Origin: a virus
Reading direction: 5' to 3' (one strand)
Length of the DNA: 64,000 nucleotides
IMG/VR virus record: IMGVR_UViG_3300037225_000856
Location: 32,001-96,000 of that record
The position numbers and the translations under genes are program-made. Positions 27,114-54,862 of the stretch are shown here, one piece after another. Below the pieces are notes generated by a model that saw only the letters and a program-made list of their open reading frames with translations, searched no databases and had not been told where the DNA came from. Position 1 is the stretch's first letter; the number at the start of each line of letters is the position of its first letter.

Positions 27114-27148
27114 TAATAATTATAGTTCACTAATAATATTATAATTCA

Positions 27149-27418: not shown

Positions 27419-27472
27419 TTTTTGAAAGTAAAATTTTCATAAAATATAAGTATTTATATAAAATATAATATT

Positions 27473-27769
27473 ATGGATAATAGTTTTTTACAAGACGGGC
27501 AAGGCAATCAATCTAACAGTAGATTGATCGCTGATATAATGATAGTTTGCGGGCTTCTGATGGCGTTAATATTCATTGTTATAGGAGTTTTTAAACCTGA
27601 GATTGATCTTATGAAGATAGCTACTGCAATAGGTGTTCTTTATGGTTCGGTAGCAGGAACAGCAATGACATTTTTATTCTTTCAGAAAAAGACAGAAGTA
27701 CAAGAGGAAAAGAATAAACCAGATGAAAATAATAATGAAAACAAGTTAGAGTCTAAACAGGAAAAATAA
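27473..27769 (+). CDS. two-TM membrane protein, holin-like
   Basis: two hydrophobic helices, charged C-terminal tail, GTATTTATA at 27450. Confidence 0.45.
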   Translation: MDNSFLQDGQGNQSNSRLIADIMIVCGLLMALIFIVIGVFKPEIDLMKIATAIGVLYGSVAGTAMTFLFFQKKTEVQEEKNKPDENNNENKLESKQEK

Positions 27770-27889
27770 TTTTTCTTGGTAAACATTATATAAAAATTTA
27801 ATATTCTTAATTGATTAATCAATTATATATGATTATGATGAAAATTTTATAATTATGTCTATTAATTAAATTTAAATATGTAATAATTT

Positions 27890-27917
27890 AAAAGACGAAT
27901 TTATTTTCGTCTTTTTT
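27890..27917 (+). terminator. intrinsic terminator
   Basis: AAAAGACGAA-TTTATT-TTCGTCTTTTTT. Confidence 0.65.
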
Positions 27918-28006
27918 ATAACATATCGATAATAATATTAATATTTGTTTCTAATAAACATGTAAGTATTTATGTTAGCATCATTTAATAAATATTAAAA
28001 ATTAAT

Positions 28007-30169: not shown

Positions 30170-30245
30170 GAAAAATTTGACTATTATATTATAAGAATTG
30201 ATGAAAAGGAATTTTTATTAGTATTTATTAACAAACTACATAATT

Positions 30246-33927: not shown

Positions 33928-34273
33928 TTGGGGTGGTAATCCGTTTCGTGACTATTTGCTTAATTCAATGTTATTGGACATTGATATTTCGAATAAACAA
34001 ACAAAAAGAGATATTAATAGTGCATTTAAATATTTTTTACAAAACATTTTGAATAATCCTAATGAAGTGGTATATTTGGATTTTGAAATAATAAAAAATG
34101 AAGGTTATTATAAACTCATTGGAAAAAATGCAATAAGTGCCTTATGGTTATGCGGTTATTTTCCAGTTGATGCCACAAACATAATGAAAAGTTGTATGTT
34201 TATTATTGGAAATAGAAAATATGAATACAACAAAAAAACGAAAGAGTTAACGTATACAATAATTCAGAATTAA
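33911..34273 (+). CDS. hypothetical protein
   Basis: 120-aa ORF coupled to the polymerase start (TAATG). Confidence 0.55.
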   Translation: MANLYSWGGNPFRDYLLNSMLLDIDISNKQTKRDINSAFKYFLQNILNNPNEVVYLDFEIIKNEGYYKLIGKNAISALWLCGYFPVDATNIMKSCMFIIGNRKYEYNKKTKELTYTIIQN

Positions 34274-38078: not shown

Positions 38079-38087
38079 GTATTTATA
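38079..38087 (+). promoter_or_regulatory. putative phage late-promoter motif GTATTTATA
   Basis: same motif is intergenic at 9559, 14901, 15989, 27450, 27966, 30221, 41308, 42494, 43249, 50555, 53600, 54905 and 58710. Confidence 0.6.
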
Positions 38088-38103: not shown

Positions 38104-38754
38104 ATGAAAATAAAAAAAATACAATTATTTGAAATTATCGATTCAAATGGTGAACTGATTGGAAAGAATGACGTACCTTCAACCGGTGCTGATTTAGAAT
38201 CAGGAGCAAACAATACTACAGACTATAACTCAAAAATTGGTCAACAACCATTCAGATACGACATGTTAGGAAGATTTGGGTTCACTTTACTTCCTTTCTT
38301 CGAAGGTAAAGAAGATCAGAGTCAAAAAGAATTATTAAAAGATTTAGCACAACTCATGCACGATAAGCACATAGATACTTTACAATATTATTATAAAAAT
38401 CCTAATCTCCTAAAGTCTGATTATAGAAAACATTCAGCAGGCGAAGAACATTCAGAACAGTGTGAAAAAGAAGATATTGCATGGGCAAGAAAAATCATCA
38501 AAGCCGTTGAACCACATTTTGAAAAAGCATTTAAAGAACCAATTGATGAAGTTGATTCTATAAATGAAGAAAAAATTGCCGAAGATAATGTAGCCGAAGA
38601 TAAACTTGTAGACAAAAGGGATGAAGATGAAATATCTCAAAAAGCTGAAGATAATGATATAAAAGACAAAAAACTTGAAAAGATTGCTGGTCTTATAAGT
38701 AAATTAGATCAACAGGATAAAGATAAGCTCGCAAACTTGTTAGAAAGAAAATAA
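38104..38754 (+). CDS. acidic hypothetical protein, possible head internal/scaffold protein
   Basis: MKIKKIQLFE leader, INEE..IAE..VAE sites. Confidence 0.5.
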   Translation: MKIKKIQLFEIIDSNGELIGKNDVPSTGADLESGANNTTDYNSKIGQQPFRYDMLGRFGFTLLPFFEGKEDQSQKELLKDLAQLMHDKHIDTLQYYYKNPNLLKSDYRKHSAGEEHSEQCEKEDIAWARKIIKAVEPHFEKAFKEPIDEVDSINEEKIAEDNVAEDKLVDKRDEDEISQKAEDNDIKDKKLEKIAGLISKLDQQDKDKLANLLERK

Positions 38755-38807
38755 AAATTTAAAAAGTTTATTGCAAATCTACATAAAATTTATATCTTTG
38801 TATAAAA

Positions 38808-40511
38808 ATGAAAAGTGATTTTTCAAAATTTCTTAATGGTGGCTATAAAGGAATATCTCAAATAAGAAATAAATTTCCTAATGAATATAATAACATTATA
38901 AAATTCAATCAAAATTTTGGAGATATTCATTGGGGGCAAAAACTATATAATTATGTTAATAATTTAATTTTATTGCCCACATGTAAATGTGGAAATAGTG
39001 TTAAATTTTATAAATTTAACAAGGGATATGCCATATATTGTTCGAGTAAATGCAGATATGAAGATACTGAATTAAAATTAAAAATAAAACAATCGTTTTT
39101 AGCAAAATATGGCGTTGAAAATCCTTTACAATCTCCAGAAGTGCAAAAAAAACGAAAAGCATTGTTTTTTGAAAAACACGGAGTTGAACATCAATCACAA
39201 TTAGCAGAGGTAAAAGAAAAAAGGAAACAAACAAATCTTGAAAGATTTGGCACGACAACAAATTTATTGTGCGAAGATACTAAAAAGAAAATAAAGATTA
39301 CAAATTTAAAGAAATTTGGTGTTGAACATAATTCACAATGTGAAGAAATTAAAGAAAAAAAGAAACAAACAAGTTTAAAAAATTGTGGTTTTGAATATAA
39401 TTTTCAATCATCTGAATTTAGAAAACTTTCTAAAGTGTCAAACAATGAAAAATATTTAAAAAAAATATCGGAATTATTAAAATGTAATGTAAATGATATA
39501 AGCGTCAATGACAATATAATTACAGTTAAAAAATATTGTGAAAAACACGATTCATTTGAAATTACAAAACAAAATTTATATAGTCGATTTATCACATATA
39601 AACAAATAAATTTTTGTACTAAATGTTATCCCATAAATGATAATATTTCAATAAAAGAAAAAGAATTAAAAAATTTTATTGACGAATTAATAATTAATAA
39701 CATAAAAAATTCTAAAAAAATAATTAATCCACAAGAAATCGACATCTATATACCTGAATATAAATTAGGTATTGAACTTGATGGTTTATATTGGCATAAC
39801 GATATTGCAAAAGATAAAAATTATCATTTAAATAAAACTGAAGAATGTGAAAAACAGGGAATTCAACTATTACATATTTTTGAAGATGAATGGATTTATA
39901 AAAAAGAAATTGTAAAAAGTATTATTAAGTCTAAGTTAAATCTAATTGAAAATAAAATATTTGGAAGAAAATGCATCATTAAAGAAATTGATAACATATT
40001 AAGTTCTGATTTTTTAAAAACTAATCATATACAAGGATTTGTTGGAAGTAAAATTAAACTGGGTTTATTTTATAATAACGAACTAGTTTCAATAATGACT
40101 TTCGGTAAAAAAAGAATTAGTATGGGCAATAAACAACCAACAGATGAAGAATATGAAATGTTAAGATTTTGTAATAAGCTCAATACAAGCGTTATTGGTG
40201 GAGCAAGTAAATTATTGAGTTATTTTATAAAGAACTATCAACCAAAATTTATTTTAACTTTCGCAGATCGTAGATATTCAAATGGTAACCTGTATGAAAA
40301 ATTAGGATTTAAGTTTATTGGTAACAGCAGACCTAATTATTGGTATTTTAAACAAAATGAATTAATCAGATATCATCGCTTTAACTTTAGAAAAGATAAA
40401 TTAGTTAAAGAAGGTTATGATTTAAATAAAACTGAACATCAAATTATGGCAGAAAGAGAGTATTTATCTATACATGATTGTGGTAACATGAAATTTGAAA
40501 TGAAATTTTAG
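38808..40511 (+). mobile_element. Hef-like homing endonuclease: KYG repeats + Vsr-like nuclease + GNAT(Mom)-like C-terminal domain
   Basis: EIDIYIP..GIELDGLYWH..HIFEDEW; EMLRFC..GGASKLL..FADRRYSNGNLY..LGF; own TATCTTTG at 38793. Confidence 0.7.
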
Positions 40512-40533
40512 ATTAAAGAAAATAAAAGAAGTA

Positions 40534-41304
40534 ATGGCAAACCAAGAATTATATGATAAGACGTATTCTGTGCCCCCAGATGTGTTAAATAGTATTCAAG
40601 CAGCACTTATATCCAATCCGAACAATAGTGGTACAAAACGAGCTAAATTCATAATTAGAAATGGCGCATTAACTTATCAAGCAATGAAAAGATTGAAGAA
40701 TTTTTTTGATTATTTTAATTCGCAGACTGGAGATAAAATGCAATATGTTCTTGCTGGCGGAAATGCAATGAAACAATTTATTGAAAGAACTTTAGCAAGC
40801 GACAGGGTAGGTGTTGAACAATCGAAAAAAGTAAAACAAATGTATAATGTTGACCCGATGTTAGGAACAAAGCCAGCACAGACACCACAATTAAATGAAG
40901 ATAAAAAAGAATTGAAAAAGAATGCAGTTGCTGTTATTGTTGACAATGATAATAAAATATTGTTACTTAAAAGAGGGAATAAAGTACTTTGGATGCCTTC
41001 AAAATGGGGATTGGTTGGTGGTGGGATTGAGAAAAATGAAACACCTAAACAAGCAATTGAAAGAGAAATAACAGAAGAAACAGGATTGGAAATAAAAAAA
41101 TTTATTAAATCATTTAGTATTCAAAGAAATCCAGATAGTATTGAACATATATTTGTTTGTCGATATGATGGTGACCCAACCGATATAAAACTAAATGAAG
41201 AAAATACAAATTATGGTTGGTATGATGTTGATGAAATGAATTTCTTGGATATTGTGCCAAACCTGATTGAATATATAAATTTAGTTTTCACAAAATATGA
41301 TTAA
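40534..41304 (+). CDS. unknown N-terminal domain + Nudix hydrolase
   Basis: Nudix box GGGIEKNETPKQAIEREITEETG, preceded by an LNE linker at 40891. Confidence 0.85.
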   Translation: MANQELYDKTYSVPPDVLNSIQAALISNPNNSGTKRAKFIIRNGALTYQAMKRLKNFFDYFNSQTGDKMQYVLAGGNAMKQFIERTLASDRVGVEQSKKVKQMYNVDPMLGTKPAQTPQLNEDKKELKKNAVAVIVDNDNKILLLKRGNKVLWMPSKWGLVGGGIEKNETPKQAIEREITEETGLEIKKFIKSFSIQRNPDSIEHIFVCRYDGDPTDIKLNEENTNYGWYDVDEMNFLDIVPNLIEYINLVFTKYD

Positions 41305-41347
41305 ATTGTATTTATAGTAAATAATTGAATAAATAAAAAATAAAAAA

Positions 41348-41587
41348 ATGAGCAAATTAGAAGGAGTTAGTTTACAATTTGAAACTTGTAGCATTGCAAA
41401 AAATCGTTACACATGTAATGATCAATATAATACTGGCAACCCAGATGCATTATCTGATGGTGACGTACAAGGCAAAGGTGAATTGAACGGTAGTATTGGT
41501 AGTTGTGATGATATTAAGGACAGAACTTGTGAACTTACAAAAAATATATATCAGCAGGGTACTCAATATACTGCAACTACAGCATAA
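41348..41587 (+). CDS. small hypothetical protein
   Basis: 79 aa, GTATTTATA at 41308, coupled to the next gene. Confidence 0.55.
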   Translation: MSKLEGVSLQFETCSIAKNRYTCNDQYNTGNPDALSDGDVQGKGELNGSIGSCDDIKDRTCELTKNIYQQGTQYTATTA

Positions 41588-42489
41588 TGATTAATGAGTT
41601 AGAAATACTATTTAATAACGTCAAGCATTTCCGTCAATTATTAACAGAAGGCGTTAGTGATAAGGTTATTGTCGATGCCATTAATCAACATAAATTTCTT
41701 TATATTTATTATAAAGGGGAAAATACGATTGAAACTGGCTATCGAACAATAAGACCTTTTGTATTAGGCGTAAACACAAGCGGTAATTTAGCACTTAGAG
41801 CATGGCAGGACAAAGGTAGAAGTGATAGCCTTAGATCAGATTCTCCAAGAAATAGATTACATCATGAACATGAAGTAGATACGGATGGATTGACAAAACC
41901 GGGTTGGCGATTGTTTCTTGTTAACAATATAACTTCTGCAATACCAACAGGTAAAAGATTTATTGATGCTCAAGGAAATGTTGAAATACCAACAGGATAT
42001 AAAGAAAATGATAAAGATATGACAGGTGGTATAATTGCATCTGTTACATCTGGCGGTAAAATACCTGTGGGCGGTATACCAACAACAAGACAAAAATTGC
42101 CGAGATGGGACAAATATAAAAACGCAGATAAAAATAACCGACAAATTACAAAAGCAGATGTTCTTGGATTAAATGATATTGCCAAAAGAGTTATGAAAAA
42201 ACCCATCACGGATTTTTTTGTTGCAATTGATAATAAAAACAATTTTAATTTACAGGATGTAAGAACTAAACTTAATTTTCCACAAAATGCATATGTGGAT
42301 GATTTAAGTAATTTATATAATAGGCTTGTTATGAAAACACCTGTGAATAAAACAGCACAAGATCAGTTTGCAAAAAACCAAAAAGATAAAATGGTAAAAG
42401 GTCTTGCCGAAAAGCAAACTCCACAAAATCCGTCAATATTTAAAGAAAATGAAAATAATCCTATTGTTAAGAAGACTTTTTTCAAATAA
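41587..42489 (+). CDS. WYL-domain protein
   Basis: IYY.G..GYRTIRPFVLG..LRAWQ..GWRLF.V..I. Confidence 0.7.
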   Translation: MINELEILFNNVKHFRQLLTEGVSDKVIVDAINQHKFLYIYYKGENTIETGYRTIRPFVLGVNTSGNLALRAWQDKGRSDSLRSDSPRNRLHHEHEVDTDGLTKPGWRLFLVNNITSAIPTGKRFIDAQGNVEIPTGYKENDKDMTGGIIASVTSGGKIPVGGIPTTRQKLPRWDKYKNADKNNRQITKADVLGLNDIAKRVMKKPITDFFVAIDNKNNFNLQDVRTKLNFPQNAYVDDLSNLYNRLVMKTPVNKTAQDQFAKNQKDKMVKGLAEKQTPQNPSIFKENENNPIVKKTFFK

Positions 42490-42524
42490 TAGAGTATTTA
42501 TAAAAAAATATAAAATTTTATAAA

Positions 42525-43211
42525 ATGGCAAAACCAGATTTAAATAAACTTAGAACCGAGATAGATAATCGCAAAAGAGAAAGAAACATATCATCATCAC
42601 CATTAGGTGAAAGTACAGGTGCTAATATTGCACCAAGGGATGCTTTTTTATATGAATTGATTAGGTCACACGATACTGGCGTTGAAACACCTGCAACTGA
42701 TTTAATTAAATTAGTTGAAAATCAAGTCGCAATTAAAAATAAAGAAACGGTACGACACAATATTAATGAAACTGCTGTTGTTGACAGAGTACCAGCACGT
42801 CTTCCTGTTCAAAACAATAAGCCAGTTGAAATGTCACCTGAAAGAGACGAGCAATTATTCACTGATCTTCAAAATAAAAACAAACAAACATTAGCTGACT
42901 CAATTGCACCGTATATTGCTGGTGGTCAGAAAAAGAATCTTAATCCAACTGGTGGTGCAGTATCACCAATGAATTTAAATGAAGGTTATTTGGTTGAAAA
43001 CGTAAAAAAGATTGTTAATAACTACTTGATTGATATTGATAATTTCGGTCCCGTTGTCGAAGAAGCAATTAAGGGTACAATTATTGAAATGTATGCTGCT
43101 GAACGAATAAAAGAAGTGCTTACTGAGAACAAAGAAATGATTAGGGGACTTATAATTGATGTCATTAAAGAGATTTCAGACAGAAATAAAGCAAAAAAAG
43201 CGCAATTGTAA
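42525..43211 (+). CDS. hypothetical helical protein, possible head scaffold/internal protein
   Basis: many LGE/INE/LNE/LVE/LTE sites; GTATTTATA at 42494. Confidence 0.5.
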   Translation: MAKPDLNKLRTEIDNRKRERNISSSPLGESTGANIAPRDAFLYELIRSHDTGVETPATDLIKLVENQVAIKNKETVRHNINETAVVDRVPARLPVQNNKPVEMSPERDEQLFTDLQNKNKQTLADSIAPYIAGGQKKNLNPTGGAVSPMNLNEGYLVENVKKIVNNYLIDIDNFGPVVEEAIKGTIIEMYAAERIKEVLTENKEMIRGLIIDVIKEISDRNKAKKAQL

Positions 43212-43224
43212 TTGCGCTTTTTTT
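43193..43224. terminator. bidirectional-type intrinsic terminator overlapping the stop codon
   Basis: AAAAAAAGCGCAATT-GT-AATTGCGCTTTTTTT. Confidence 0.75.
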
Positions 43225-43280
43225 CGCAATTTTTTTACAGCTAAGTTTGTATTTATAAATATACTACAAATAGTTACAGC

Positions 43281-45920: not shown

Positions 45921-46771
45921 ATAAAAATACTTGGACTAATAATGAAATAATATTATTAAAAAATAATTTTGCAATAAAAACAAATGAGGAATTAATTAGT
46001 TTATTTTCAAATAGAACAATTATGTCAATTAAAGTTAAAGCAAAACGACTTAAATTAAGAAAAAATAAAGAAACTGAATTTAGAAATAGAAGTATTGCTC
46101 ATCTGGGAGAAAAAAATTCAATGTGGGGTAAAATATCTAAAATACATGGAAAAAATTATGATGATTATTATGGTAGTGAAAAATCAAAAGAAATAAAAAC
46201 TAAATTATCAAAAGATAAGATTGAAAAACATAAAAATGGTGTATTAAATACTTCTGGTATTAATAATGGTATGTTTGGTAAAATATCACCAAATAGAGGA
46301 ATAACAATGGTAATTGAACAAAGAAAAAAAATATCTGATGCAAAAAAAGTATATTGGAATAATTTATCGGATAAAAGAAAAAATGAATTAAATTTAATTA
46401 GAATTAATAATATTTATAAAAACAAAATAATTGATACTAAACCTGAAATTATTATTGAAAATTATCTTAAAGAAATTAATGTTTATTATAGAAAAAAAGA
46501 AATTGTCGGATATTATAATTGTGATTTTATGATTAATGATAAATTAATTATTGAAGTGCAAGGAGATTATTGGCATGCAAATCCAATTAAATATTTAAAT
46601 AAAAAATTAACATTAGCACAACAAAATAACATACATAGAGATAAAAGAAAGTTTACTTATTTAAGTAATCGTAATTATAAAATATTATATTTGTGGGAAA
46701 ATGATATATATCGAAATTTGAACATTTGTAAAAATCAAATAAATAATTTAATATATGGGAAAACTGAATGA
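45917..46771 (+). mobile_element. homing-endonuclease-like protein: NUMOD3-type repeats + Vsr/DUF559 nuclease
   Basis: GEKNSMWGK, NGMFGK, TKPE, YNCDF..IEVQGDYWH..D..LWE. Confidence 0.75.
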
Positions 46772-49700
46772 TTTTATATTAATATTAAAGCAAAAACCTT
46801 TTATTAAATCACTAATAAATGATTTAAAATCAGATGTTTATGTAGTTGGTGGAGTTGTGCGTGATCTTATACTTAATAAACCCAATAAAGATATTGATTT
46901 GGTGGTTGGAAAAGTACCAATAGACAAATTAGTTGCACATTTACAAAAATTTGGTAAGGTAGATGTTGTGGGTAAATCATTTGGAGTCATTAAATTCATT
47001 GATAATGAGGGTATTGATTATGATATTGCTTTACCGAGACGAGAAACTAAAAACAGTGAGGGTGGATATCGTGGATTTGATGTACAAAGTGATGAAAATC
47101 TTCCAATTGAAGACGAATTAATTAGAAGGGACGCTAAGATGAATGCTATGGCTATTAATATTAATACAAATAAATTTATTGACCCATTGGGAGGATTAGA
47201 AGATATAAAAAATAAACAAATATCTGCAGCAAATCCAGAGGCGTTTTCAGATGACCCATTAAGAGCTATAAGATTCTGTTCATTTGCTTCACGTTTTGGA
47301 TTTACTATTGACCCAGACACAATGAAAATGATTCAAAAAAATGCTGGGAGAGTAAAAGAAATAGCACCAGAGAGAATTTTGACAGAATTTGATAAAATTG
47401 TCAAAAAGGGAAACAAACTATTGGCTGCAACACTACTTGATGAAACTGGTTTGCTTAAAGAAATATTTGGTAGAGGACTATATTATGATTTCAGAAATAC
47501 AAAAGAACCCTTTGATAAAGTAAAAACAATGAGTGAATTTATTTATTTGTTAAGTAAAAATCTTGTTAATGACCCTGCAGAGTTTTACAAAAATAATCTT
47601 AAAGGTGATGAAAATACATACAGAGAAATAAAAGCACTTCAAATAGCATATGATAGCGGTGAAGCAACCAATTTAATTGAAGCAAGATCAATTGCACATA
47701 ATATGTACGTGATATCTCCAATATCATTACAAAGTCAGATATTGCCAAATGTAATTAAAACTGCTGCACAAGAATTATTTGAAGGCAAGTATCCCAAAAC
47801 TGTTAATGAATTGGCAGTAAATGGTAATGATTTAATGGAACTTGGTTTACAAGGTAAAGTAATTGGTGATATGCAAAAATCATTATTATTAAAGATTTAT
47901 TCAAATAAAATTAGGAATAATAAAGAAGAATTGCTAAATTTGGCGGGTCAAAATAAACCAATGATTAAAGAAGAAGTTAGCGAAAGAATTGAATATGGAG
48001 CATTGTTATTATTTCTCGATATTCCAATTTGGAATAAAATTACATCAATAATCAATAAAGAAGATTTATATGATGAAGAAGGTTATGGTATTGAATCTGA
48101 CCCACATGTTACAATATTATATGGTTTCCATGATGAAGTTACTGCTGAAGAAGTGTTTGATTTATATAAATTAAATATACCATTAAAACCAATTGAAATA
48201 CGTATTAAAGGTATTAATATTTTTGAAACTTTTAAATTTGACGTAGTAAAATTTGATGTCGAATCCGATATACTTAAAAAAGCACATGAGATAATGAAAG
48301 ATTTGCCAAATACTGAAGATTTCCCTGATTATCATCCGCATATAACAATTGCATGTGTAAAAAAAGGTGAGGGCAAAAAATATACTAAACCATTTGAAAA
48401 AGAAATAATATTAAAAGGTAATAAATTAATATATTCTACTAAAGGTCAAAGAGGTGATGCTGGCGAAAAACTAATGCTTGAAGGTGTTGCTGATAGATAT
48501 GCGGAGAAAACATTCAACATACCCGACCCAAATACTCAGAATGATGTACAGGCAATGGGAGATATACAAAAAAGTGTTGAAGAACCTATTGGTTATGTTA
48601 CACCTTACTCCTCAAATGATTCAGCTAAAGAAGTACCAATATATTTAAATCCAAAGTCATTAACTAATTTTGCTGATAATGTCAGGGTAATTGTAAATGA
48701 TAAAGGAGATTTATATATTGCACAGGAAGATGGCAGATTTAATCATGGCATGATGGCAAAGGCATTAGGTTTATTTGCTTCTGATAATGGAATATATAAT
48801 GATATGGATGAATATCAATTATTGCATAGAGTAGACAACACTAATGCATTTGGGTTAGGCGATACTGCTGAAGATTATATTGAAAGAAAATATGAAAATA
48901 GAGTATATTTATTAAACATATTACGTCAGGCAAAAAGAAAAAATCCACAATATGATTTTTATAATGAATATTATGCGAATATAAAAGGTGAACCAGTAAG
49001 TCTTAATGAATTTGCTTATCCTGAAATAAGACCAGAAGAAAAAAATACTTGGAATATAAATGGAGAAAATGTTGATATTAAGTTTTTTGTTGAAAAATAT
49101 GACATATGGAATCAGGGTGGATATGCAGACCCTTCAGAAGCATCTGTGTTAGAATTTCTTCAAAATAATTATGAAGATTTCATTCATGACGAGAAACTTA
49201 AAAAAGAATTACTTGTGGCTTTAACTGATAGAAATGTATTAGATGAAACGGTTTTAAATGAAATGTCAATTCAGACAATAGATTATACCGATATTATTAC
49301 TCCAGAATATATTAAAGAAGTAGAAATGAGTGATAATTATGAAAGATATATTGAATATTATCAGTATGAAGAAAATATGGTTCATGTTGACAAAGAAGAA
49401 ATTGAAAAAACTGAAAATTTTAAAAAATGGTTCAGATATGAATTAAGTGTCAGATATGAGGATGTTGTTGATAATATAACAAATAAAATAAAACCTGATG
49501 GTACTATTGATATTTGGAGAAGAATAAAAGTTGATGATATTTGGGTTAATCATCTTTTACAAGCGGGAAAACATTTGGGTATTTATTGGTCATGGGATGA
49601 ACGTGCTGCAGAAGCACATTGGGGTGATACAGCAAAAAACAGTAATGCATTAATAAAATCTTCAATAAATGAAAAATATATTGATTGGAAAAATACAATA

Positions 49701-49865
49701 TATGCAAACATGGATTTAAGTCTTGGTGAAGATGAAAAAGAAATAAGATTGTTTAAAAATACATCATTAAAAATTGAAGAATTAAATATTGATGGTCAAA
49801 ATGTTGAAGATATTATGGGAAGCGATTATGAATTACAATTAAGAAATAAAACATTTTATGCGTAA
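46755..49865 (+). CDS. cca: polyvalent protein: CCA-adding/poly(A) polymerase + Acb1-like 2H phosphoesterase + two unknown domains + R-S-E ADP-ribosyltransferase-like domain
   Basis: VGGVVRD, DIDL, RRD..NAMA, DP.GG..D, F.DDPLR..RF, ERI..E; PHVTILYG and YHPHITIA; IWR..GIYWS..EKEI. Confidence 0.8.
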   Translation: MGKLNDFILILKQKPFIKSLINDLKSDVYVVGGVVRDLILNKPNKDIDLVVGKVPIDKLVAHLQKFGKVDVVGKSFGVIKFIDNEGIDYDIALPRRETKNSEGGYRGFDVQSDENLPIEDELIRRDAKMNAMAININTNKFIDPLGGLEDIKNKQISAANPEAFSDDPLRAIRFCSFASRFGFTIDPDTMKMIQKNAGRVKEIAPERILTEFDKIVKKGNKLLAATLLDETGLLKEIFGRGLYYDFRNTKEPFDKVKTMSEFIYLLSKNLVNDPAEFYKNNLKGDENTYREIKALQIAYDSGEATNLIEARSIAHNMYVISPISLQSQILPNVIKTAAQELFEGKYPKTVNELAVNGNDLMELGLQGKVIGDMQKSLLLKIYSNKIRNNKEELLNLAGQNKPMIKEEVSERIEYGALLLFLDIPIWNKITSIINKEDLYDEEGYGIESDPHVTILYGFHDEVTAEEVFDLYKLNIPLKPIEIRIKGINIFETFKFDVVKFDVESDILKKAHEIMKDLPNTEDFPDYHPHITIACVKKGEGKKYTKPFEKEIILKGNKLIYSTKGQRGDAGEKLMLEGVADRYAEKTFNIPDPNTQNDVQAMGDIQKSVEEPIGYVTPYSSNDSAKEVPIYLNPKSLTNFADNVRVIVNDKGDLYIAQEDGRFNHGMMAKALGLFASDNGIYNDMDEYQLLHRVDNTNAFGLGDTAEDYIERKYENRVYLLNILRQAKRKNPQYDFYNEYYANIKGEPVSLNEFAYPEIRPEEKNTWNINGENVDIKFFVEKYDIWNQGGYADPSEASVLEFLQNNYEDFIHDEKLKKELLVALTDRNVLDETVLNEMSIQTIDYTDIITPEYIKEVEMSDNYERYIEYYQYEENMVHVDKEEIEKTENFKKWFRYELSVRYEDVVDNITNKIKPDGTIDIWRRIKVDDIWVNHLLQAGKHLGIYWSWDERAAEAHWGDTAKNSNALIKSSINEKYIDWKNTIYANMDLSLGEDEKEIRLFKNTSLKIEELNIDGQNVEDIMGSDYELQLRNKTFYA

Positions 49866-50514
49866 AGAAAAATTACTTAAAGAGCAACAGCGAAATAAAT
49901 TACTTGAAGATTCTGGTGTCAATCTGGTTCAGGGTGCAAATTTAATATCAGTTGATATACAGCCAGAATATGAAAGTTATATTACGTTTAATTTGGATTC
50001 ATTCATAATGTTTTTAAATAAAAATATTAATGTTATAAATTCATTAACTTTCTTGTACAATGGTCAGGATACTTTGGGAATGGTAAATGAAGCAGGATAT
50101 AGAGATTGGTTATATGAAAATGGATTACAAGAAGAAGTTTTGGATTCAGCCAGATTTTATGATAAAGGATATGCGTTTTTCAGATATTGCATGGATGAAG
50201 GTATTGAAGAAGAAGAAACTGTAAATTTGGTAAAATACATGATTCAAAACAACATTAATGACAGTAGGGACATTGATGAAGAAATGTGGAATGGTTTTAT
50301 GCAAGAATATGGATATGATTCAAGTGCTGTTAGAGATTTACTTGAATCAGCAGCAGATATGATAAATATTCCAGATTTAATGGATTATTTAAGAAGATTT
50401 GGTGGAAAATTAGTAATATGCGGTGGTGGTATTAATGAATGTTTTAAAGAAGTTGAAATTGCATTAACAGCATTGGGAAAAAATTATAATGTCTTAACAA
50501 AATTTACTTATTAA
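49858..50514 (+). CDS. isochorismatase/nicotinamidase-like cysteine hydrolase fold protein
   Basis: LISVDIQPEY..DKGY..VICGGGINEC. Confidence 0.55.
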   Translation: MRKEKLLKEQQRNKLLEDSGVNLVQGANLISVDIQPEYESYITFNLDSFIMFLNKNINVINSLTFLYNGQDTLGMVNEAGYRDWLYENGLQEEVLDSARFYDKGYAFFRYCMDEGIEEEETVNLVKYMIQNNINDSRDIDEEMWNGFMQEYGYDSSAVRDLLESAADMINIPDLMDYLRRFGGKLVICGGGINECFKEVEIALTALGKNYNVLTKFTY

Positions 50515-50563
50515 TTTTATTATTATATAAGTGTGAGTTACTAAATCCTATAAAGTATTTATT

Positions 50564-50740
50564 ATGAAAAGCAAAGACAAAACAAGAACAGTTACACCAA
50601 TGGATGTAGCCAAATTTTTAGGTGTTGAAAAAGAATATAAAGAAGTTCTTTTTGAACAAGAACTGAAAGAAAATCATGATATTATTATGAGTAATAATAT
50701 CGAAGAAAATAATACTATTAGAAAAGATAACAATAAATGA
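50564..50740 (+). CDS. 58-aa peptide duplicating the C-terminal motif of the downstream ArdC-like protein (not in the ORF track)
   Basis: MKSKDKTRTVTPMDVAKFLGVEKEYKEVL..; ATGA overlap with 50737. Confidence 0.65.
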   Translation: MKSKDKTRTVTPMDVAKFLGVEKEYKEVLFEQELKENHDIIMSNNIEENNTIRKDNNK

Positions 50741-52296
50741 AAGCATTAAATGAAGCATTTGTTATAAGCAAAAGAACAGATCAGAAGGGTAATTATATTG
50801 CATATATTGACCCGAATAAGCCAGAAAACAAAGAAACTTTTAAATACAAAGACATATTTAAGAATCATGGTGCTAAATGGAATAATGATTATAAATTTTG
50901 GTTTTGGTATATAGGCAAAACAAAAGATCAATGGCAAAACGTTTACAGTCATTTCATTGAACCAGCATTAAAAGAAGTACATGCATTAGAAGGTGCTCCA
51001 GAAGAAGAAAGTGCTGCAGCATTAATATCATCACTGGATGCTCTTTTGTCAGAAATTAGTGCAACACCAACCACTACAAATCCAGAAAATGACGCTGAAC
51101 TTACGCCTGACGAAAAAAGAGCACTTATTGATAAATTAGGAAAGTTTAAAGAAACTTTGGTCAATATTGATAGCGATGAAGAATTTAAAAAAACAATGCA
51201 AATTATTTTATCTTTTAAAAATTCTCAAGGACATTCATATAGTTTCATGAATAGCATATTGATTATGATTCAAAATCCTAATGCAAGTTTAGTAAAAAGC
51301 GAAATCAACTGGAATAGATTTAATAGAAGTGTTGTTGATAAGAAAAATAGAATGATTATACGTTCTCCGAGTAAGAGAGCAATGAGACCATATTCTAAAA
51401 TTGAAAAAGAAAAAATTACTGGAGAATTTTTAAAGTCAGTTGGTAAAAATACCTATAATGAATTGGGTCCGGGTGAACGTGAACGTCTTGGCGTTCAACT
51501 TCGTGGAGCGTTTAGTGGTCATGATTTTGACTATACGTTTGTATATGATGTTTCGAATACTCAACAAATGGAAGGCAAAGAAAATTTCTTGGGTGATTAT
51601 GAAAAACGTAAAGAGATTAAATGGTTTGAAGAAAACATGATAAGTGAAGAAATCAGACCAATATATAAATCATTGCTTGATTTTGCTCAAGAAAACGGAG
51701 TTAAAATAGAATTGGTTGATGAATTGGATGGTGCAAGAGGTGTTAGTCATAATGGTATGATTCAAATTTTAAAAAACGAAGGCAATGATGTTGGTTTAAC
51801 AAAAACATTGGCACATGAAATTGCACATGAATTATTACATCAAAGTTATATGAAAAATAAGAATTCAAAATATTCACAATATTTTGTAGGTAAAGCTGAA
51901 GGCAGAGATGCTGTTGAACAACAAGCTGAATTGACAGCATGGATGGTATTAGGCTCATTTAATTTTGACTTGAAAACAACTTCCTTAAATTATGCAGCAA
52001 TGTGGGGTGCTGATAAAGATGCTATGATTCGTGTATTTGATACAGTATCTGGTGTTGTCAGTATGTTGGTGGATTATATTAGCAGGAAAATTAAAAATAA
52101 TGCAAACAATGCTGTACCACAAAATAACACAAATGCAGCTACACCACAAAATGAAACGCTTGACAATACATCAAGAACAGTTACTCCAATGGACGTAGCA
52201 AGATTTATTGGTGTTGAAAAAGAGTACCAAGATGTTTTAAATAAAAATAAAAGCGAACTGGTAGAAAATTTCTACAGTTTATTAAAAAAATTATGA
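50737..52296 (+). CDS. ArdC-like ssDNA-binding domain + zincin metallopeptidase (MPTase), with an N-terminal GAKW..W domain
   Basis: YSFMNSILIMIQNP.A..W..FNR, VYDVSNT, ARG, TLAHEIAHELLH, EQQAE. Confidence 0.8.
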   Translation: MKALNEAFVISKRTDQKGNYIAYIDPNKPENKETFKYKDIFKNHGAKWNNDYKFWFWYIGKTKDQWQNVYSHFIEPALKEVHALEGAPEEESAAALISSLDALLSEISATPTTTNPENDAELTPDEKRALIDKLGKFKETLVNIDSDEEFKKTMQIILSFKNSQGHSYSFMNSILIMIQNPNASLVKSEINWNRFNRSVVDKKNRMIIRSPSKRAMRPYSKIEKEKITGEFLKSVGKNTYNELGPGERERLGVQLRGAFSGHDFDYTFVYDVSNTQQMEGKENFLGDYEKRKEIKWFEENMISEEIRPIYKSLLDFAQENGVKIELVDELDGARGVSHNGMIQILKNEGNDVGLTKTLAHEIAHELLHQSYMKNKNSKYSQYFVGKAEGRDAVEQQAELTAWMVLGSFNFDLKTTSLNYAAMWGADKDAMIRVFDTVSGVVSMLVDYISRKIKNNANNAVPQNNTNAATPQNETLDNTSRTVTPMDVARFIGVEKEYQDVLNKNKSELVENFYSLLKKL

Positions 52297-52679
52297 GTAA
52301 TATATCATATAGTGCAGTTGTACTTGACGAACAATCAAGAGAAAGATTAATCAACAGGTTTAAATCAATAATTCCAGAAGGATTTGAAATTATTGCGCAT
52401 CATATGACTGTTAATTTGGGTGAAATTGACCCTGAATATGAAAAGTATCTTGGCTTAGCTGTACGTTTAACTGTTAATGATATTGCTATGGATGATAAAG
52501 TAATTGCAGTTGGCGTATCATCAGGAATTAATAGTCATAATACCAAAGCACATATAACATTGGCAGTAAATAAGGCAAATGGTGGCAAACCAGTGATGTC
52601 AAATTATCTAACTAATTGGGAGAAATTACGCAGACCATTATTATTAAGAGGAAAAATAACTCAAGTAGAATTTAAATAA
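52293..52679 (+). CDS. 2H phosphoesterase, tRNA-ligase CPDase-like (2',3'-cyclic phosphodiesterase)
   Basis: HHMT..AHITLAVN..GGKPVMSN. Confidence 0.75.
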   Translation: MSNISYSAVVLDEQSRERLINRFKSIIPEGFEIIAHHMTVNLGEIDPEYEKYLGLAVRLTVNDIAMDDKVIAVGVSSGINSHNTKAHITLAVNKANGGKPVMSNYLTNWEKLRRPLLLRGKITQVEFK

Positions 52680-52680
52680 A

Positions 52681-53592
52681 ATGATAACAAGACTATGTGC
52701 ATTTGATTTTGATAGTACTCTTATAGATTCTCCCCAAAAAGAAAGTGGAAAAATTCAATGGTCAGAGAAAATGGGAAAGCCACATCCATATCAAGGCTGG
52801 TGGGGTAGACCAGAAAGTCTTGATTTAAATGTTTTTAATATTAAACCATTTCCTAAAATATTGAATCTTTTAAATAAAGATGTTTCAACACCAGCTACAT
52901 ATACAATTATATTGACTTCAAGACAGGAAAAATTACGTCCTTTAGTTCAGGAAGTATTGGATGTTAATAATATTCATATTGATAAACTCGATATGCAATG
53001 TGATCAAAGAACTAAAGGTCAAAAAATTCTTGATTATACAAAGAAATTTCCAGACCTGAGAGAAATTAATGTTTACGATGACAAAGATAGTGATATTATA
53101 TCATACGAAGGAATAAGAAATTCATTACCTGAAGATATAAAATTTAATATTTATCTTGCTAATCAAGGTAGTTTAACTTTAGTTGAAGCAGAAAGTAAAC
53201 TTATATCAATTATTAAAGAAGAAGTTCAAAATTTTGTTCCTGATAATAACTATGTATATCATGGTACATATGATGGTGCTGGTTACTACATACAGCGTAC
53301 AGGTAGTATGAAGATTAATGCAGCAAATAATAATGAACCTTTTATTTCATTTACCAGCAAACCAAATGTTGCAAAATATTATGCAGATATGAAAGGCGGG
53401 TCAGCCAGAGGTATTGTACTTAGAACAAAAAAGACTGCAGACTTTACACCATCACTTAAATATAAAAAAAATGAAGGATATGAATGGGTAACAACCAGAG
53501 AAATACCAGTAGATGAATTAGAAATTAACACAAAATACGGTTGGATTCCATTGAATAATTGGGATTTTATCGATAAAGAAATAAAAAAATAA
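52681..53592 (+). CDS. RNA-repair-type HAD phosphatase fused to an ART-like domain
   Basis: FDFDSTL, WW, ILTSR, K, VYDD; linker LVE..IIKEE; YHGT..ISFT..A.YYA..YEW. Confidence 0.7.
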   Translation: MITRLCAFDFDSTLIDSPQKESGKIQWSEKMGKPHPYQGWWGRPESLDLNVFNIKPFPKILNLLNKDVSTPATYTIILTSRQEKLRPLVQEVLDVNNIHIDKLDMQCDQRTKGQKILDYTKKFPDLREINVYDDKDSDIISYEGIRNSLPEDIKFNIYLANQGSLTLVEAESKLISIIKEEVQNFVPDNNYVYHGTYDGAGYYIQRTGSMKINAANNNEPFISFTSKPNVAKYYADMKGGSARGIVLRTKKTADFTPSLKYKKNEGYEWVTTREIPVDELEINTKYGWIPLNNWDFIDKEIKK

Positions 53593-53622
53593 GATTACTG
53601 TATTTATAGTAAAATTATTCTA

Positions 53623-54444
53623 ATGATTGATATGCGTTATAAGCCAAGATTTCTTCCACAAATGAGTGCACCATTTGAAATTGTGTTAAAACAACTCGAT
53701 GAAGAAGGTGTGGATTATGAACTAATCGAAGCAGACCCAAATGATTTGGAGGCATCACAAGGAGTTACATTTTCTGATGAAGTTGAAAAATGTGAACTCA
53801 ATGATAATAATCCTATTTGGATAGCTGGTGAAAATAAAGTTTGTGACGGTCATCACAGAATGGTAAAAGCCTTACTTGATGGTGTATCGATTAAAGCAGT
53901 AAAACTTGGTTTAAACGAAAAAGATGCTTGCAGAGTTTTAAATAAAATAGAGGATATTTATGAATATCAGCAAAAACGTGGATTAGAAGAAGTTGAAATG
54001 CAAGATACAATTAATTATTATGGTGGTGATGAAAATCAATTTTTAAATACTCTGGAAGAAGATAATTTTAATATTGAAACTCCATCAGGAGAAACAAAAA
54101 CAAATCAAAAGACAATTACTGCATATCGAAAAGAACCTATAAAAGAAAATTCGGCTGTAGGAAATTTCTTTTCATTAAAACCTATTGAGGGATTTAGTAA
54201 ATATGAAATTGATTTTGACAATCTTTTGGACTTACATTCTTTGGGTGTCACATATAAAGACGGACAAGAACCTGCCGATATTCTGGCAAAAATTTGGTTT
54301 CCACACATAAATTTTGAAAAATTAAGTGAACAATATGGCATGCCTTCAGTTAATCTTAAGAATAAAGCAATTACAGAAAAAGCAATGAGTTTAGGCTATG
54401 ATGGCATTAAACTTGATGATAAATTAATACAAGGATTAAAATAA
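53623..54444 (+). CDS. ParB/Srx-like domain + ART-like C-terminal domain
   Basis: LEASQ, PIWI, DGHHR; AYR..GNFFS..YEI..LGYDGI. Confidence 0.55.
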   Translation: MIDMRYKPRFLPQMSAPFEIVLKQLDEEGVDYELIEADPNDLEASQGVTFSDEVEKCELNDNNPIWIAGENKVCDGHHRMVKALLDGVSIKAVKLGLNEKDACRVLNKIEDIYEYQQKRGLEEVEMQDTINYYGGDENQFLNTLEEDNFNIETPSGETKTNQKTITAYRKEPIKENSAVGNFFSLKPIEGFSKYEIDFDNLLDLHSLGVTYKDGQEPADILAKIWFPHINFEKLSEQYGMPSVNLKNKAITEKAMSLGYDGIKLDDKLIQGLK

Positions 54445-54834: not shown

Positions 54835-54862
54835 AATGCCAGCATTTTGTTGGCATTTATTT
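54835..54862 (+). terminator. intrinsic terminator
   Basis: AATGCCAGCA-TTT-TGTTGGCATT followed by a T-rich tract. Confidence 0.65.

Follow-up and report, generated by a model that had tools for sequence, protein, structure and literature searches.

Positions 38104-54444 of the window (the whole 64,000-nt stretch that was analysed) form a polyvalent-protein locus that is conserved in an uncultured clade of T4-type phages with genomes of ~300-365 kb. Enzymes, RNA-repair enzymes among them, are strung here into shuffled multi-domain proteins whose joints carry a motif of the head-protease cutting type, [LIV]-x-Glu. Since the joints bear the motif of a T4-type head protease, we lean towards the reading that the polyvalent proteins are packed in the capsid, cut apart at the joints by an S77 protease and injected as separate enzymes. 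Cleavage, packaging and injection, as well as late timing and the targets of the enzymes, are steps that we infer from sequence. The first-pass annotation, which had proposed late-expressed polyproteins cut during head maturation, is partly supported. The following ORFs, all on the + strand, were delimited in the island (they are designated below by their first nucleotide).

38104..38754, +: 216-aa conserved protein, candidate capsid-targeted head-internal protein (leader, conservation)
38808..40511, +: homing endonuclease with DUF7487, a DUF559/MTES_1575 nuclease and a weak Mom-like match (phrog_3339, E = 1.9e-140; Pfam)
40534..41304, +: two-domain protein, an N-domain without known function, LNE, then a Nudix hydrolase domain (NUDIX, E = 3.7e-19, aa 130-243)
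41587..42489, +: conserved 300-aa protein without known function ([LI]-x-E conserved at aa 2-4 and 19-21)
42525..43211, +: conserved 228-aa protein without known function (own promoter motif and terminator; [LIV]xE 2.35x over composition)
43281..45920, +: polyvalent protein, N-terminal half, 879 aa (>115 homologues with shuffled modules; AlphaFold; Foldseek)
45917..46771, +: Vsr/DUF559-type endonuclease, read as a homing endonuclease splitting the polyvalent gene (weak Pfam Vsr and DUF559 matches)
46755..49865, +: polyvalent protein, C-terminal half, 1036 aa (Pfam, break points, AlphaFold, 2H motifs)
49858..50514, +: 218-aa protein without known function, LKE and LLE in the first 17 residues; few relatives have one (sequence reading)
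50737..52296, +: 519-aa protein with a zincin-type HEIAH motif, N-region possibly ArdC-like (direct sequence reading; weak phrog_87 metalloprotease match, 1.8e-6)
52293..52679, +: stand-alone 2H/tRNA-ligase-CPD-like phosphoesterase, 128 aa (Pfam tRNA_lig_CPD, 4.7e-5)
52681..53592, +: 'Swiss-army-knife RNA repair' HAD phosphatase in aa 1-186, followed by an extra C-terminal domain (HAD_SAK_1, 2.6e-5)
53623..54444, +: 273-aa protein with a DGHHR motif of the ParB-like nuclease type (direct sequence reading)

ORFs 43281 and 46755 are the two halves of a single polyvalent-protein gene that a homing endonuclease interrupts: the relatives P0005 (~90% identical) and P0025 run uninterrupted across the insertion point of ORF 45917. 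More than 130 relatives of this protein, with modules shuffled, were found on huge-phage contigs; fusion partners among the homologues are GNAT, ART-PolyVal (PF18760), ParB, Nudix and tRNA-ligase CPD. The large ORFs are genuine polyvalent proteins, as had been suggested. The core gene has a Nudix protein, a 2H protein, a HAD protein, a zincin-motif protein and a ParB-like protein as smaller neighbours. The Nudix, 2H and HAD modules, separate ORFs here, are fused into the chain in relatives: the N-terminus of P0118 is the Nudix part of ORF 40534 alone, 22 relatives have the 2H module of ORF 52293 at the C-terminal end of the polyvalent protein, and P0114 and P0116 end in the HAD part of ORF 52681. 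In genome G001 (299 kb) the counterparts of three window ORFs are fused as one 2688-aa ORF (one junction has Gln at P3), and in three complete DTR genomes (327-357 kb) spacer cassette B lies inside one large ORF. The modules and predicted cuts of the two halves are as follows.

ORF 43281, aa 1-207 (43281-43901), +: kinase-fold domain (Foldseek to aminoglycoside and protein kinases, prob 0.97-1.0)
ORF 43281, aa 254-327, +: helical module
ORF 43281, aa 327-376 (44259-44408), +: spacer cassette A (cassette alignments)
ORF 43281, aa 377-476, +: poorly predicted module
ORF 43281, aa 477-550 (44709-44930), +: spacer cassette B, with two invariant Cys (cassette alignments)
ORF 43281, aa 555-662, +: alpha/beta domain
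ORF 43281, aa 693-856 (45357-45848), +: HExxE domain, motif invariant
ORF 43281, +: predicted cuts after E333, E482, E502, E547 and E681 (site conservation)
ORF 46755, aa 1-405, +: CCA-adding/poly(A) polymerase-type nucleotidyltransferase (Pfam PolyA_pol 2.9e-22, PolyA_pol_RNAbd 4.4e-14)
ORF 46755, aa 414-570, +: 2H phosphoesterase, Acb1/LigT-like, HVT451 and HIT529 (Pfam Acb1 1.7e-7)
ORF 46755, aa 602-750, +: domain without known function
ORF 46755, aa 762-826, +: small domain
ORF 46755, aa 855-1036, +: poorly predicted C-terminus
ORF 46755, +: predicted cuts after E406, E576, E752 and E831 (break points, site conservation)

Two ORFs of the proposed payload island are ruled out as payload: ORFs 38808 and 45917 are homing endonucleases found in few relatives. 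Full-length orthology for the former was seen in 1 of 20 related loci, with partial matches (32% identity) in two more; the latter has short partial matches only, in 2 of 20. ORF 38808 is a variable insert outside the cargo set.

The [LIV]xE sites listed in the first-pass annotation are all present at the coordinates given there, among them MKIKKIQLFE at 38104, LNE at 40891 and LKE at 44271, 44718 and 44913, as well as IKEE at 47964, LMLE at 48471 (aa 573-576), LNE at 49002 and LDE/LNE at 49239-49262 in ORF 46755. BLAST break points in ORF 43281 (>100 homologues; aa ~205-212, 325-333, 369-376, 477-482, 547-550 and 665-692) and in ORF 46755 (aa ~405, ~572, ~750 and ~830-840) coincide with these sites. 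Family-wide, an [LIV]xE ends no more than 1 residue away from 38% of the unique break points (n = 579) vs 7.4% expected (5.2x); many break points are the same few homologous cassette edges repeated in related proteins, with about 10-15 truly independent junction types behind them. In 20% of cases the last residue of an HSP is itself the Glu of an [LIV]xE vs 2.4% at random positions. Control motifs at the unique break points are depleted ([LIV]xD/K/Q/N, 0.15-0.36x) or near expectation ([AGS]xE, 0.86x). In AlphaFold models all junction sites of both halves lie within segments of pLDDT<50 (the low-confidence segments of ORF 46755 are 406-413, 571-601, 751-761 and 827-854). The original argument, which had been made from the position of the sites, therefore holds.

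Two conserved spacer cassettes, both bounded by [LIV]xE-type sites, are the best-conserved parts of the family. At their edges (alignments of roughly 70-115 sequences each) the residues are [LVI] in 79/85 with E in 84/86; E in 72/72; [LIM]-x-E in 110/114; and [LIV] in 94/96 with E in 92/93, while P2 is variable at every edge. The same signature of conserved P3, variable P2 and Glu at P1 was found at E333, E482, E502, E547 and E681 of ORF 43281 and at E406 and E831 of ORF 46755; as a control, 1 of 26 sites in PolB and none in a glycosyltransferase show it. The alignments support selection for [LIV]-x-Glu, with P2 free to vary, at the joints of the polyvalent proteins. Where the 2H module is fused, it is preceded by an [LIV]xE at a distance of at most 10 residues in 19/22 relatives (within ~2-5 residues in 16/22). 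LNE120 of ORF 40534 (aa 120-122, 40891-40899) is moderately conserved (P3.94, P2.62, P1.81), and LVE167 and IKE178 of ORF 52681 stand at the joint of the HAD and C-terminal domains.

It could be argued that any Lys/Glu-rich protein contains many [LIV]xE and that copies near joints were picked by the reader. The island has 130 copies vs 94.5 expected from composition (1.38), with the remaining genome already at 439 vs 386 (1.14), and the island excess was traced to ORFs 42525-43211 (12 vs 5.1), 43281-45920 (29 vs 14.9) and 49858-50514 (9 vs 4.8); ORF 46755-49865 (20 vs 22) and PolB (26 vs 26) have no excess. The linker enrichment suggested as a check is weak: AlphaFold linkers hold 12/29 sites in 31% of residues of ORF 43281 (p = 0.16) and 6/20 in 14% of ORF 46755 (p = 0.045). 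N-terminal [LIV]xE within 22 residues, in 7/15 island ORFs vs roughly 1/4 of other ORFs, is not striking. Still, such an origin of the joint motifs is already disfavoured and strikes us as very improbable given the break-point coincidence with depleted control motifs, the near-invariant Glu at the cassette edges and a leader, described below, that is conserved among orthologues while its P2 varies.

This leader, the first 10 residues of ORF 38104, reads M-x-x-K-K-x-x-[LI]-x-E (38104-38133) and is followed by invariant IIDSNG[ED]LIG. It is kept in 14/14 distinct orthologues (48-90% identity), with Leu/Ile at position 8 and Glu at 10; P3 and P1 are invariant, and P2 varies among F, L, M, V, T, D and S. 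The protein itself had no Pfam or PHROG match. Comparison of sequences supports for the leader the geometry of a T4 capsid targeting sequence (CTS); in T4 IPIII, processing is governed by residues 8 and 10 of the 10-residue CTS (PMC9026906). ORF 41587 has F-R-x-L-[LI]-x-E followed by G/A/S-V (LTE19: P3 1.0, P1 1.0 in 16 aligned sequences), and the ORF 50737 leader M-K-[AT]-L-N-E, then A-F, is kept in 4/4 distinct orthologues (43-97% identity); for the ORF 49858 leader one distinct orthologue was available for comparison. Several of the sites proposed earlier look ordinary, namely LFE210 and INE254 of ORF 43281, with P2 fixed, and LDE at aa 25 of ORF 53623, not conserved as LxE. No convincing leader was seen in the stand-alone 2H, HAD and ParB-like ORFs. 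PolB, an unlikely cargo, has a conserved L-x-E at residues 7-9; a leader-like signature is therefore possible without packaging.

The gp21-like protease and capsid genes that had been predicted elsewhere in the genome were not found on this contig, itself 37% complete, but do occur in relatives with the same locus, complete 327-357 kb genomes included, together with a motif-rich scaffold; the capsid protein is of the gp23 type. The protease (Peptidase_S77, 72 bits; T4 gp21 structure 5jbl, E = 3.5e-12) adjoins the scaffold and capsid genes and lies upstream of the capsid gene in 76/80 loci, a set that includes the capsid loci of the three DTR genomes. Close to the C-terminus of the protease itself, an L-[KRN]-E is conserved. 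The scaffold has [LIV]xE at 2.06x over composition ([AGS]xE, 0.87x), and the last residues of the capsid propeptide region are M-[IL]-N-E, with S next.

Cutting of the chain by a different protease is a rather unlikely alternative. The enzyme might be a zincin-type domain of the locus (HEIAH in ORF 50737, the invariant HExxE in ORF 43281, the lead to Peptidase_M78 being weak with a score of 0.77, below noise) or a host enzyme, acting before packaging or after delivery; Iyer et al. 2017 (PMC5512222) proposed MPTase autoprocessing for polyvalent proteins, e.g. P1 DdrB. However, S77 proteases of the T4 type all cut C-terminal to Glu, and for them cleavage after Glu with hydrophobic P3 is documented (PMC5694885, PMC9026906); it is no known zincin rule. 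The classical S77 substrates of the clade bear the same motif, and in many proteins of the family no peptidase module can be recognised.

Of slightly greater weight, yet still unlikely, is the view that the motif is functional but not cut by the prohead protease. It would mark flexible joints, docking motifs or recombination-friendly seams for module swaps, and the proteins would act uncut or in the cytoplasm as an RNA-repair/counter-defence set made after infection. Modules are shuffled to an extreme degree at exactly these seams, the cassettes are highly conserved, the 2H and HAD ORFs are leaderless, CCA-adding, 2H, HAD and Nudix enzymes could serve in the cytoplasm at every stage, and PolB shows an L-x-E signature in a non-structural protein. 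A recombination seam, though, requires conserved DNA, not a rule of hydrophobic-x-Glu in which the middle residue is free. This rule holds at non-homologous joints, in the ORF 38104 leader, the protease tail, the capsid propeptide and the scaffold, and Asp, Lys, Gln and Asn variants are depleted at the joints.

In the favoured reading of packaging and S77 cleavage, precursors would enter the prohead via N-terminal leaders of the T4 CTS type, perhaps also via the spacer cassettes, and the gp21-like S77 prohead protease of the phage would cleave behind each junction Glu. Once released, the enzymes would exit the capsid together with the DNA and be at work ahead of all phage gene expression. Their likely tasks would be repair of tRNA 3' ends and of 2',3'-cyclic phosphate ends left by host defence nucleases, removal of signalling nucleotides and phosphorylation of host targets.

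A promoter motif, GTATTTAT, had been taken to link the island with late genes. The motif is real: there are 30 copies in the window vs 10.4 expected, and most of them lie between genes on the + strand, with a start codon 16-40 nt downstream. It occurs at 38079-38086 before ORF 38104 and at 42494 before ORF 42525 (which ends in a strong terminator, 43193-43224), and it heads the scaffold-capsid operon in relatives. It also precedes an operon that runs without a terminator into the SNF2 helicase and PolB, so late timing is not established.

The Dar proteins of phage P1 (DarB, DdrB, DarA, Hdf) are large, head-packed anti-defence proteins that undergo processing; they differ from the present case in head type and protease, and no junction-motif architecture is known in them. 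The head cargo of T4, namely IPI, IPII, IPIII and the ADP-ribosyltransferase Alt, is loaded by a CTS and trimmed by the prohead protease gp21 (PMC9026906, PMC3012670). The present clade resembles T4 in its head module (S77 protease, scaffold, gp23-type capsid protein), in the predicted hydrophobic-x-Glu cut rule, in the 10-residue ORF 38104 leader with processing residues at 8 and 10, and in cargo enzymes putatively aimed at the host. Unlike T4 cargo, single units trimmed at their ends, each chain here has many unrelated predicted enzymes, with candidate sites at every internal joint and conserved internal spacer cassettes.

The polyvalent proteins of Iyer, Burroughs, Anand, de Souza and Aravind (2017, PMC5512222) likewise combine from two to many unrelated conflict-type domains per polypeptide and are predicted to be delivered with the DNA. 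Their repertoire is shared by relatives (ART-PolyVal, GNAT, ParB) and by this locus (zincin motif, ParB-like motif, 2H). There, unlike here, autoprocessing by an MPTase domain is proposed, and the passages of that paper that were searched mention no regular prohead-protease motif at each joint, spacer cassettes or RNA-repair content (CCA-adding enzyme, 2H, HAD).

The giant phages phiKZ, 201phi2-1 and SPN3US also have a diverged gp21-type protease and many head proteins cut after Glu: gp175 and gp245 cut ejection/inner-body proteins at S/A/G-x-Glu or A-x-Glu, multi-site propeptides are chopped up and cleared, and cargo is ejected into the host (PMC5694885, PMC10052503). Their cuts, in contrast, remove N-terminal propeptides of 20-254 residues from substrates that are not enzyme chains, and P3 is small (Ala/Ser/Gly) there vs Leu/Ile/Val here.

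All genes of the polyvalent locus (window 38104-54444) are co-oriented on the + strand and begin directly 3′ of the gene for family-B DNA polymerase (PolB, 34273-38040). Terminators at 43193-43224 and 54835-54857 split the locus into units; the baseplate genes gp25 and wedge follow about 4 kb beyond its end, and a gp23-type capsid protein and a gp21-like (S77) protease are encoded in relatives. Synteny of the locus is kept in 19-20 related contigs, few of which have the endonuclease genes 38808-40511 and 45917-46771.

Features of the polyvalent locus and of its downstream flank
ORF 43281, aa 1-207, + strand: protein-kinase/aminoglycoside-kinase fold (Foldseek probability 0.97-1.0)
ORF 43281, aa 327-376, + strand: spacer cassette A, with the start [LVI] (79/85)-x-E (84/86)-D-G-S
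ORF 43281, aa 477-550 (44709-44930), + strand: spacer cassette B, with the start h-x-E (72/72)-D, an internal [LIM]-x-E (110/114)-R and the end [LIV] (94/96)-x-E (92/93)
ORF 46755, + strand: PolyA_pol head and RNA-binding neck (PF01743, 2.9e-22; PF12627, 4.4e-14; phrog_2244, 5.6e-56)
ORF 46755, + strand: predicted 2H phosphoesterase, LigT/Acb1-like, with HVT (aa 451) and HIT (aa 529) motifs (Acb1, 1.7e-7; 2_5_RNA_ligase2, 1.9e-6)
58734, 4-5 kb downstream of the island: gp25 baseplate gene
59143, 4-5 kb downstream of the island: baseplate wedge protein gene

The polyvalent protein is encoded in two halves, ORF 43281 (879 aa, protein P0001) and ORF 46755 (1036 aa, protein P0003). The former has more than 115 homologues, many from contigs of 200-366 kb, and a search with the latter yielded further ones. 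ORF 46755 corresponds to the C-terminal part of relatives that start like ORF 43281 (e.g. homologue P0011). The two halves are separated by a Vsr/DUF559-type endonuclease gene (45917-46771), which divides the chain within the helix preceding the CCA domain; homologues P0005 (∼90% identical) and P0025 have an unbroken chain at this place. The gene shares bases with the stop of ORF 43281 (45880-45920) and with the start of ORF 46755 (46755-46850), and both halves remain open. In the related genome G001 (299 kb, 91% complete) a single ORF of 2688 residues combines the equivalents of 43281-45920, 46755-49865 and 52293-52679. This G001 polyprotein (L009:10001-18064, 2688 aa) contains three tandem kinase-like modules with G-rich loops; a module initiated by G-[VI]-A-D-x-x-A-E-K is present in three copies, each directly after an h-x-E site.

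Across the ORF 43281 family the N-terminal 325 residues are retained in nearly every member and the remainder is reshuffled, with GNAT, ART-PolyVal (PF18760), ParB, Nudix, tRNA-ligase CPD and CCA-adding enzyme domains as fusion partners among relatives. As is typical of polyvalent proteins (Iyer et al. 2017), the chain joins unrelated domains in combinations that vary among relatives: the kinase fold, PolyA_pol/CCA, 2H and at least four more folded units. The N-terminal unit of ORF 46755 is predicted to belong with the class II CCA-adding/poly(A) polymerase nucleotidyltransferases, and two H-x-T/S motifs together with the Pfam matches place its second module, also by prediction, among the 2H phosphoesterases. 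Some modules of the chain in relatives are separate ORFs in the window: ORF 52293 (2H/CPD-like), the first 186 residues of ORF 52681 (HAD_SAK_1) and the Nudix half of ORF 40534. Several domains that are well folded in the AlphaFold models of ORFs 43281 and 46755 have no match; ESM Atlas scores for aa 548-682 and 693-879 of ORF 43281 (0.77-0.83) are within noise, and a Peptidase_M78 lead among them was discarded. No window ORF matched PF18760 at E ≤ 0.01, the domain being present in relatives only; this includes ORF 46755, whose C-terminus is poorly predicted.

The first-pass annotation had proposed that the enzyme domains of the locus are delimited by [LIV]xE sites resembling those cut by prohead proteases. 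All of the sites that it quoted are present at the positions it gave. Raw motif density turned out to be too weak as evidence: the island has 130 occurrences vs 94.5 expected from composition (ratio 1.38), the rest of the genome has a ratio of 1.14, PolB has 26 occurrences vs 26 expected, and ORF 46755-49865 shows no excess (20 vs 22). The excess is concentrated in ORFs 42525 (2.35-fold; 12 vs 5.1, the highest in the genome), 43281 (1.95-fold) and 49858 (1.89-fold). The enrichment in inter-domain linkers that had been anticipated was marginal: residues with pLDDT < 50 in the AlphaFold models, which make up 31% of ORF 43281 and 14% of ORF 46755, contain 12 of 29 sites (p = 0.16) and 6 of 20 sites (p = 0.045), respectively. 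Most [LIV]xE sites in these two ORFs are therefore ordinary, and the case depends on particular sites.

Particular sites were singled out by break points, i.e. ends of BLAST alignments against homologues, which are derived independently of the motif. The break points of ORF 43281 (aa ∼205-212, 325-333, 369-376, 477-482, 547-550 and 665-692) and of ORF 46755 (aa ∼405, ∼572, ∼750 and ∼830-840) coincide with sites of the first-pass annotation. In the all-against-all comparison of 116 members, 20% of internal alignment ends fell exactly at the Glu of [LIV]xE vs 2.4% of random positions. The motif was within one residue of 38% of 579 unique break points vs 7.4% expected (5.2-fold), though many of these are a few homologous edges recurring in related proteins, so that independent junction types number ∼10-15. 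Control motifs were depleted at break points ([LIV]xD/xK/xQ/xN, 0.15-0.36-fold) or nearly neutral ([AGS]xE, 0.86-fold). Of 22 relatives with a fused 2H module, 19 have an [LIV]xE at most 10 residues upstream of the module start (16 of the 22 at about 2-5 residues). Chance as the origin of the junction motif is extremely improbable, and the motif is very probably under selection.

In ORF 43281 a conserved P3, a free P2 and Glu at P1 were observed at E333, E482, E502, E547 and E681; ORF 46755 shows them at E406 and E831. Two sites of the first-pass annotation, LFE210 and INE254 of ORF 43281, differ in that the middle residue is fixed; both look like parts of folded units. In T4 prohead-protease sites P3 is Leu or Ile; Gln occupies P3 in one joint of G001. 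The junction sites all lie in low-confidence segments (pLDDT < 50) of the AlphaFold models, segments that are presumably disordered. The conserved junctions thus combine a hydrophobic P3, any P2 and Glu at P1 in such a segment, the pattern of an S77 cleavage motif. That the joints are instead flexible or recombination seams, never cut, we regard as unlikely, given the conserved P3 and Glu around a free P2 and the behavior of the control motifs.

Two of the junction regions are short conserved spacer cassettes that are found repeatedly between modules and in whose sites the middle residue is variable in all cases. Conservation within the protein family is highest in the core of cassette B, a peptide of ∼45 residues (V-K-K-K-C-R-L-G-G ... 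A-C-N-Q-G-D) with two invariant Cys, no Pfam match and a low-confidence fold; 17 of 102 relatives have it in more than one copy. Kinship between cassettes A and B was considered and rejected; they share the LKED start only.

The first-pass annotation also described short leaders ending in [LI]-x-E. In ORF 38104 the start M-x-x-K-K-x-x-[LI]-x-E, followed by an invariant IIDSNG[ED]LIG, was found in 14 of 14 distinct orthologues (48-90% identity), with seven different amino acids at residue 9. The geometry is that of T4 IPIII's capsid targeting sequence, which is formed by the first 10 residues, with processing governed by residues 8 and 10 (PMC9026906); the ORF 38104 leader is a candidate of this type. 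In T4, a change to Asp at position 10 prevents processing and leaves targeting intact (PMC9026906). The [LI]-x-E at residues 19-21 of ORF 41587 is kept in 16 of 16 aligned sequences, and M-K-[AT]-L-N-E of ORF 50737 in four distinct orthologues. The leader sites of ORFs 42525 and 53623 did not hold up, being inconsistently kept among orthologues, and ORF 49858 had a single distinct orthologue for comparison. The polyvalent protein (ORF 43281) has its own N-terminal L-x-E (aa 10-12), kept in 65% of relatives. The frequency of N-terminal [LIV]xE over all ORFs is not distinctive and was set aside.

In control alignments of orthologues, signature sites numbered one in PolB (1255 aa), none in a glycosyltransferase (460 aa) and none in ORF 53623. 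The one in PolB is an L-x-E that spans residues 7-9 (34273-34299; M-D-K-x-x-V-L-x-E; 15 aligned PolB sequences), placed like a leader of the capsid-targeting type; it may be a coincidence, or the polymerase may also be processed. A leader-like signature is therefore no proof of packaging. The window is preceded by a series of Glu-rich ORFs (source genome G000, 24451-29447; window −7549 to −2553; locus L002) with leaders such as M-I-K-L-A-N-I-I-Y-E, or with L-F-E at residues 9-11 and 13-15; these ORFs may encode further head-internal proteins.

The source contig, linear and assigned to a virus in IMG/VR (112,403 bp; G+C 25-38%), has a CheckV completeness of 37% and thus represents part of a phage genome of roughly 300 kb; the window covers its bases 32001-96000. 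Since it is a fragment, no Peptidase_S77 or gp23-type capsid gene was found on these 112 kb (37% complete). PHROG and Pfam searches with possible structural ORFs from the ends of the contig gave no head genes; the matches were to transposase, SbcD-like exonuclease and sigma factor. The gp21-like protease that the first-pass annotation expected elsewhere in the genome is thus missing from the contig but is encoded in relatives having the same locus, G001 and G002. The G002 protein scored 72 bits to Peptidase_S77 and E = 3.5e-12 to the T4 gp21 structure 5jbl, and has the DHP histidine and SSRG serine motifs; the G001 protein scored above the family cut-off (28.6 bits, the sum of two pieces in one frame).

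The gene order in relatives is protease-scaffold-capsid, as in T4, with the protease upstream of the capsid gene in 76 of 80 fetched loci. The capsid protein (557-560 residues) has 176 relatives in IMG/VR, many from contigs of 320-365 kb. Its residues 1-62 contain six [LIV]xE and end in M-[IL]-N-E-S, which we take to correspond to the approximate cut position of T4 gp23. In the scaffold proteins [LIV]xE occurs at 2.06-fold and [AGS]xE at 0.87-fold the level expected from composition, and heptad periodicity could contribute to the 2.06-fold value. In the C-terminal tail of the protease, N-G-I-x-L-[KRN]-E is conserved, with an acidic residue next to it, in line with the self-trimming that is known of gp21-type enzymes (PMC5694885). 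Each of five relatives has cassette B inside one large ORF; three of the five are complete genomes of 327-357 kb that carry terminal repeats. Among GenBank phages no cultured relative was found: only the kinase-like domain gave matches (28-30%; Xanthomonas and Alishewanella phages), and the best capsid match was 34%, to Flavobacterium phage immuto.

As to which enzyme would cut, all gp21-type proteases so far studied cleave C-terminal to Glu (PMC5694885, PMC10052503, PMC9026906), LIE-9 in gp21 being cited (PMC5694885, PMC9026906). Cutting by zincin-type domains of the locus itself would accord with the proposal of Iyer et al. (PMC5512222) for MPTases in polyvalent proteins; with Glu at P1 of the junctions and an S77 protease in relatives, we hold this alternative to be quite improbable. 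As to the signature domains of polyvalent proteins (MPTase/zincin, ART-PolyVal, ArdC-N and DdrB-like ParB), HEIAH in ORF 50737 and DGHHR in ORF 53623 were spotted by eye, and profile support for both is weak.

The promoter motif GTATTTAT occurs in 30 copies in the window vs 10.4 expected; nearly all of them are + strand copies that lie 16-40 nt upstream of start codons. As the first-pass annotation had it, the motif is shared with structural genes: it precedes ORFs 38104, 41348, 42525, 43281, 50564 and 53623 as well as the glycosyltransferase, gp25 and fibre-region genes. Its place in about all of the 80 relatives is between the protease and scaffold genes, so that it heads the scaffold-capsid operon, which fits a late-type promoter. 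A copy at 30221 heads an operon running into the SNF2 helicase and PolB genes with no recognisable terminator between, and a transposase gene (L003:9802-11085; genome 105301-106584; phrog_506, 3.7e-39) is also located behind the motif. The motif was therefore rejected as proof of late timing; late expression of the locus is plausible.

We lean towards the reading that the polyvalent chain, with some of its neighbours, is cargo of the head. The precursor and some neighbour proteins would be loaded into the prohead, the S77 protease would cut the chain at junction Glu residues, and the freed enzymes would be ejected together with the DNA. The site-flanked spacer cassettes would be excised and may be internal targeting or protease-docking segments. 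The predicted modules (CCA-adding enzyme, two 2H phosphoesterases, RNA-repair-type HAD and Nudix) point to tRNA-end repair; module content also points to removal of signalling nucleotides and the kinase-fold domain to host-protein modification. More tentatively, T4-type giant phages in general could possess plug-and-play enzyme loading, where modules are spliced between cassettes serving as targeting or docking propeptides that are excised at hydrophobic-x-Glu; in this clade the cargo would include an injected kit for tRNA repair (the CCA-adding enzyme with 2H and HAD phosphoesterases), which could undo tRNA damage by host defences before the first phage translation.

To our knowledge, it has not yet been demonstrated how up to a dozen enzymes in one chain are loaded and activated. 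A prohead-protease motif at each joint offers a testable answer: one precursor would be loaded, and its enzymes would be cut free of each other as the head matures. If this is true, the virion cargo of uncultured giant phages would be predictable from sequence, the RNA-repair enzymes would be injected counter-defence, and the natural joint and spacer sequences could be used to engineer phage capsids as protein carriers; the T4 targeting pathway is already in use for packaging foreign proteins. Polyvalent proteins are known, and in 2017 they were predicted to be delivered together with phage DNA (PMC5512222); the joint motif links them to the T4 pathway of capsid targeting and gp21 processing (PMC9026906, PMC3012670), and extensive processing of giant-phage head proteins is known as well (PMC5694885, PMC10052503). 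In the literature outside subscription journals we found no description of prohead-protease motifs at internal joints of polyvalent proteins or of spacer cassettes.

Several other observations concern the same region. Paralogous homing-endonuclease genes (32716-33927 and 38808-40511; DUF7487 and DUF559/MTES_1575) lie on either side of PolB, the second with a weak Mom-family match (PF25680, 3.3e-7, aa 390-537). With a promoter motif of its own and a bidirectional terminator (14-bp stem), ORF 42525 (228 aa; 42525-43224) looks like a unit of one gene that is strongly expressed. A 58-aa ORF (50564-50740) upstream of ORF 50737 contains a motif of ∼20 residues (R-T-V-T-P-M-D-V-A-x-F-x-G-V-E-K-E-Y) that is repeated at the end of ORF 50737 (52170-52240), and this pairing recurs in five relatives (loci L005, L006, L008, L016 and L019).
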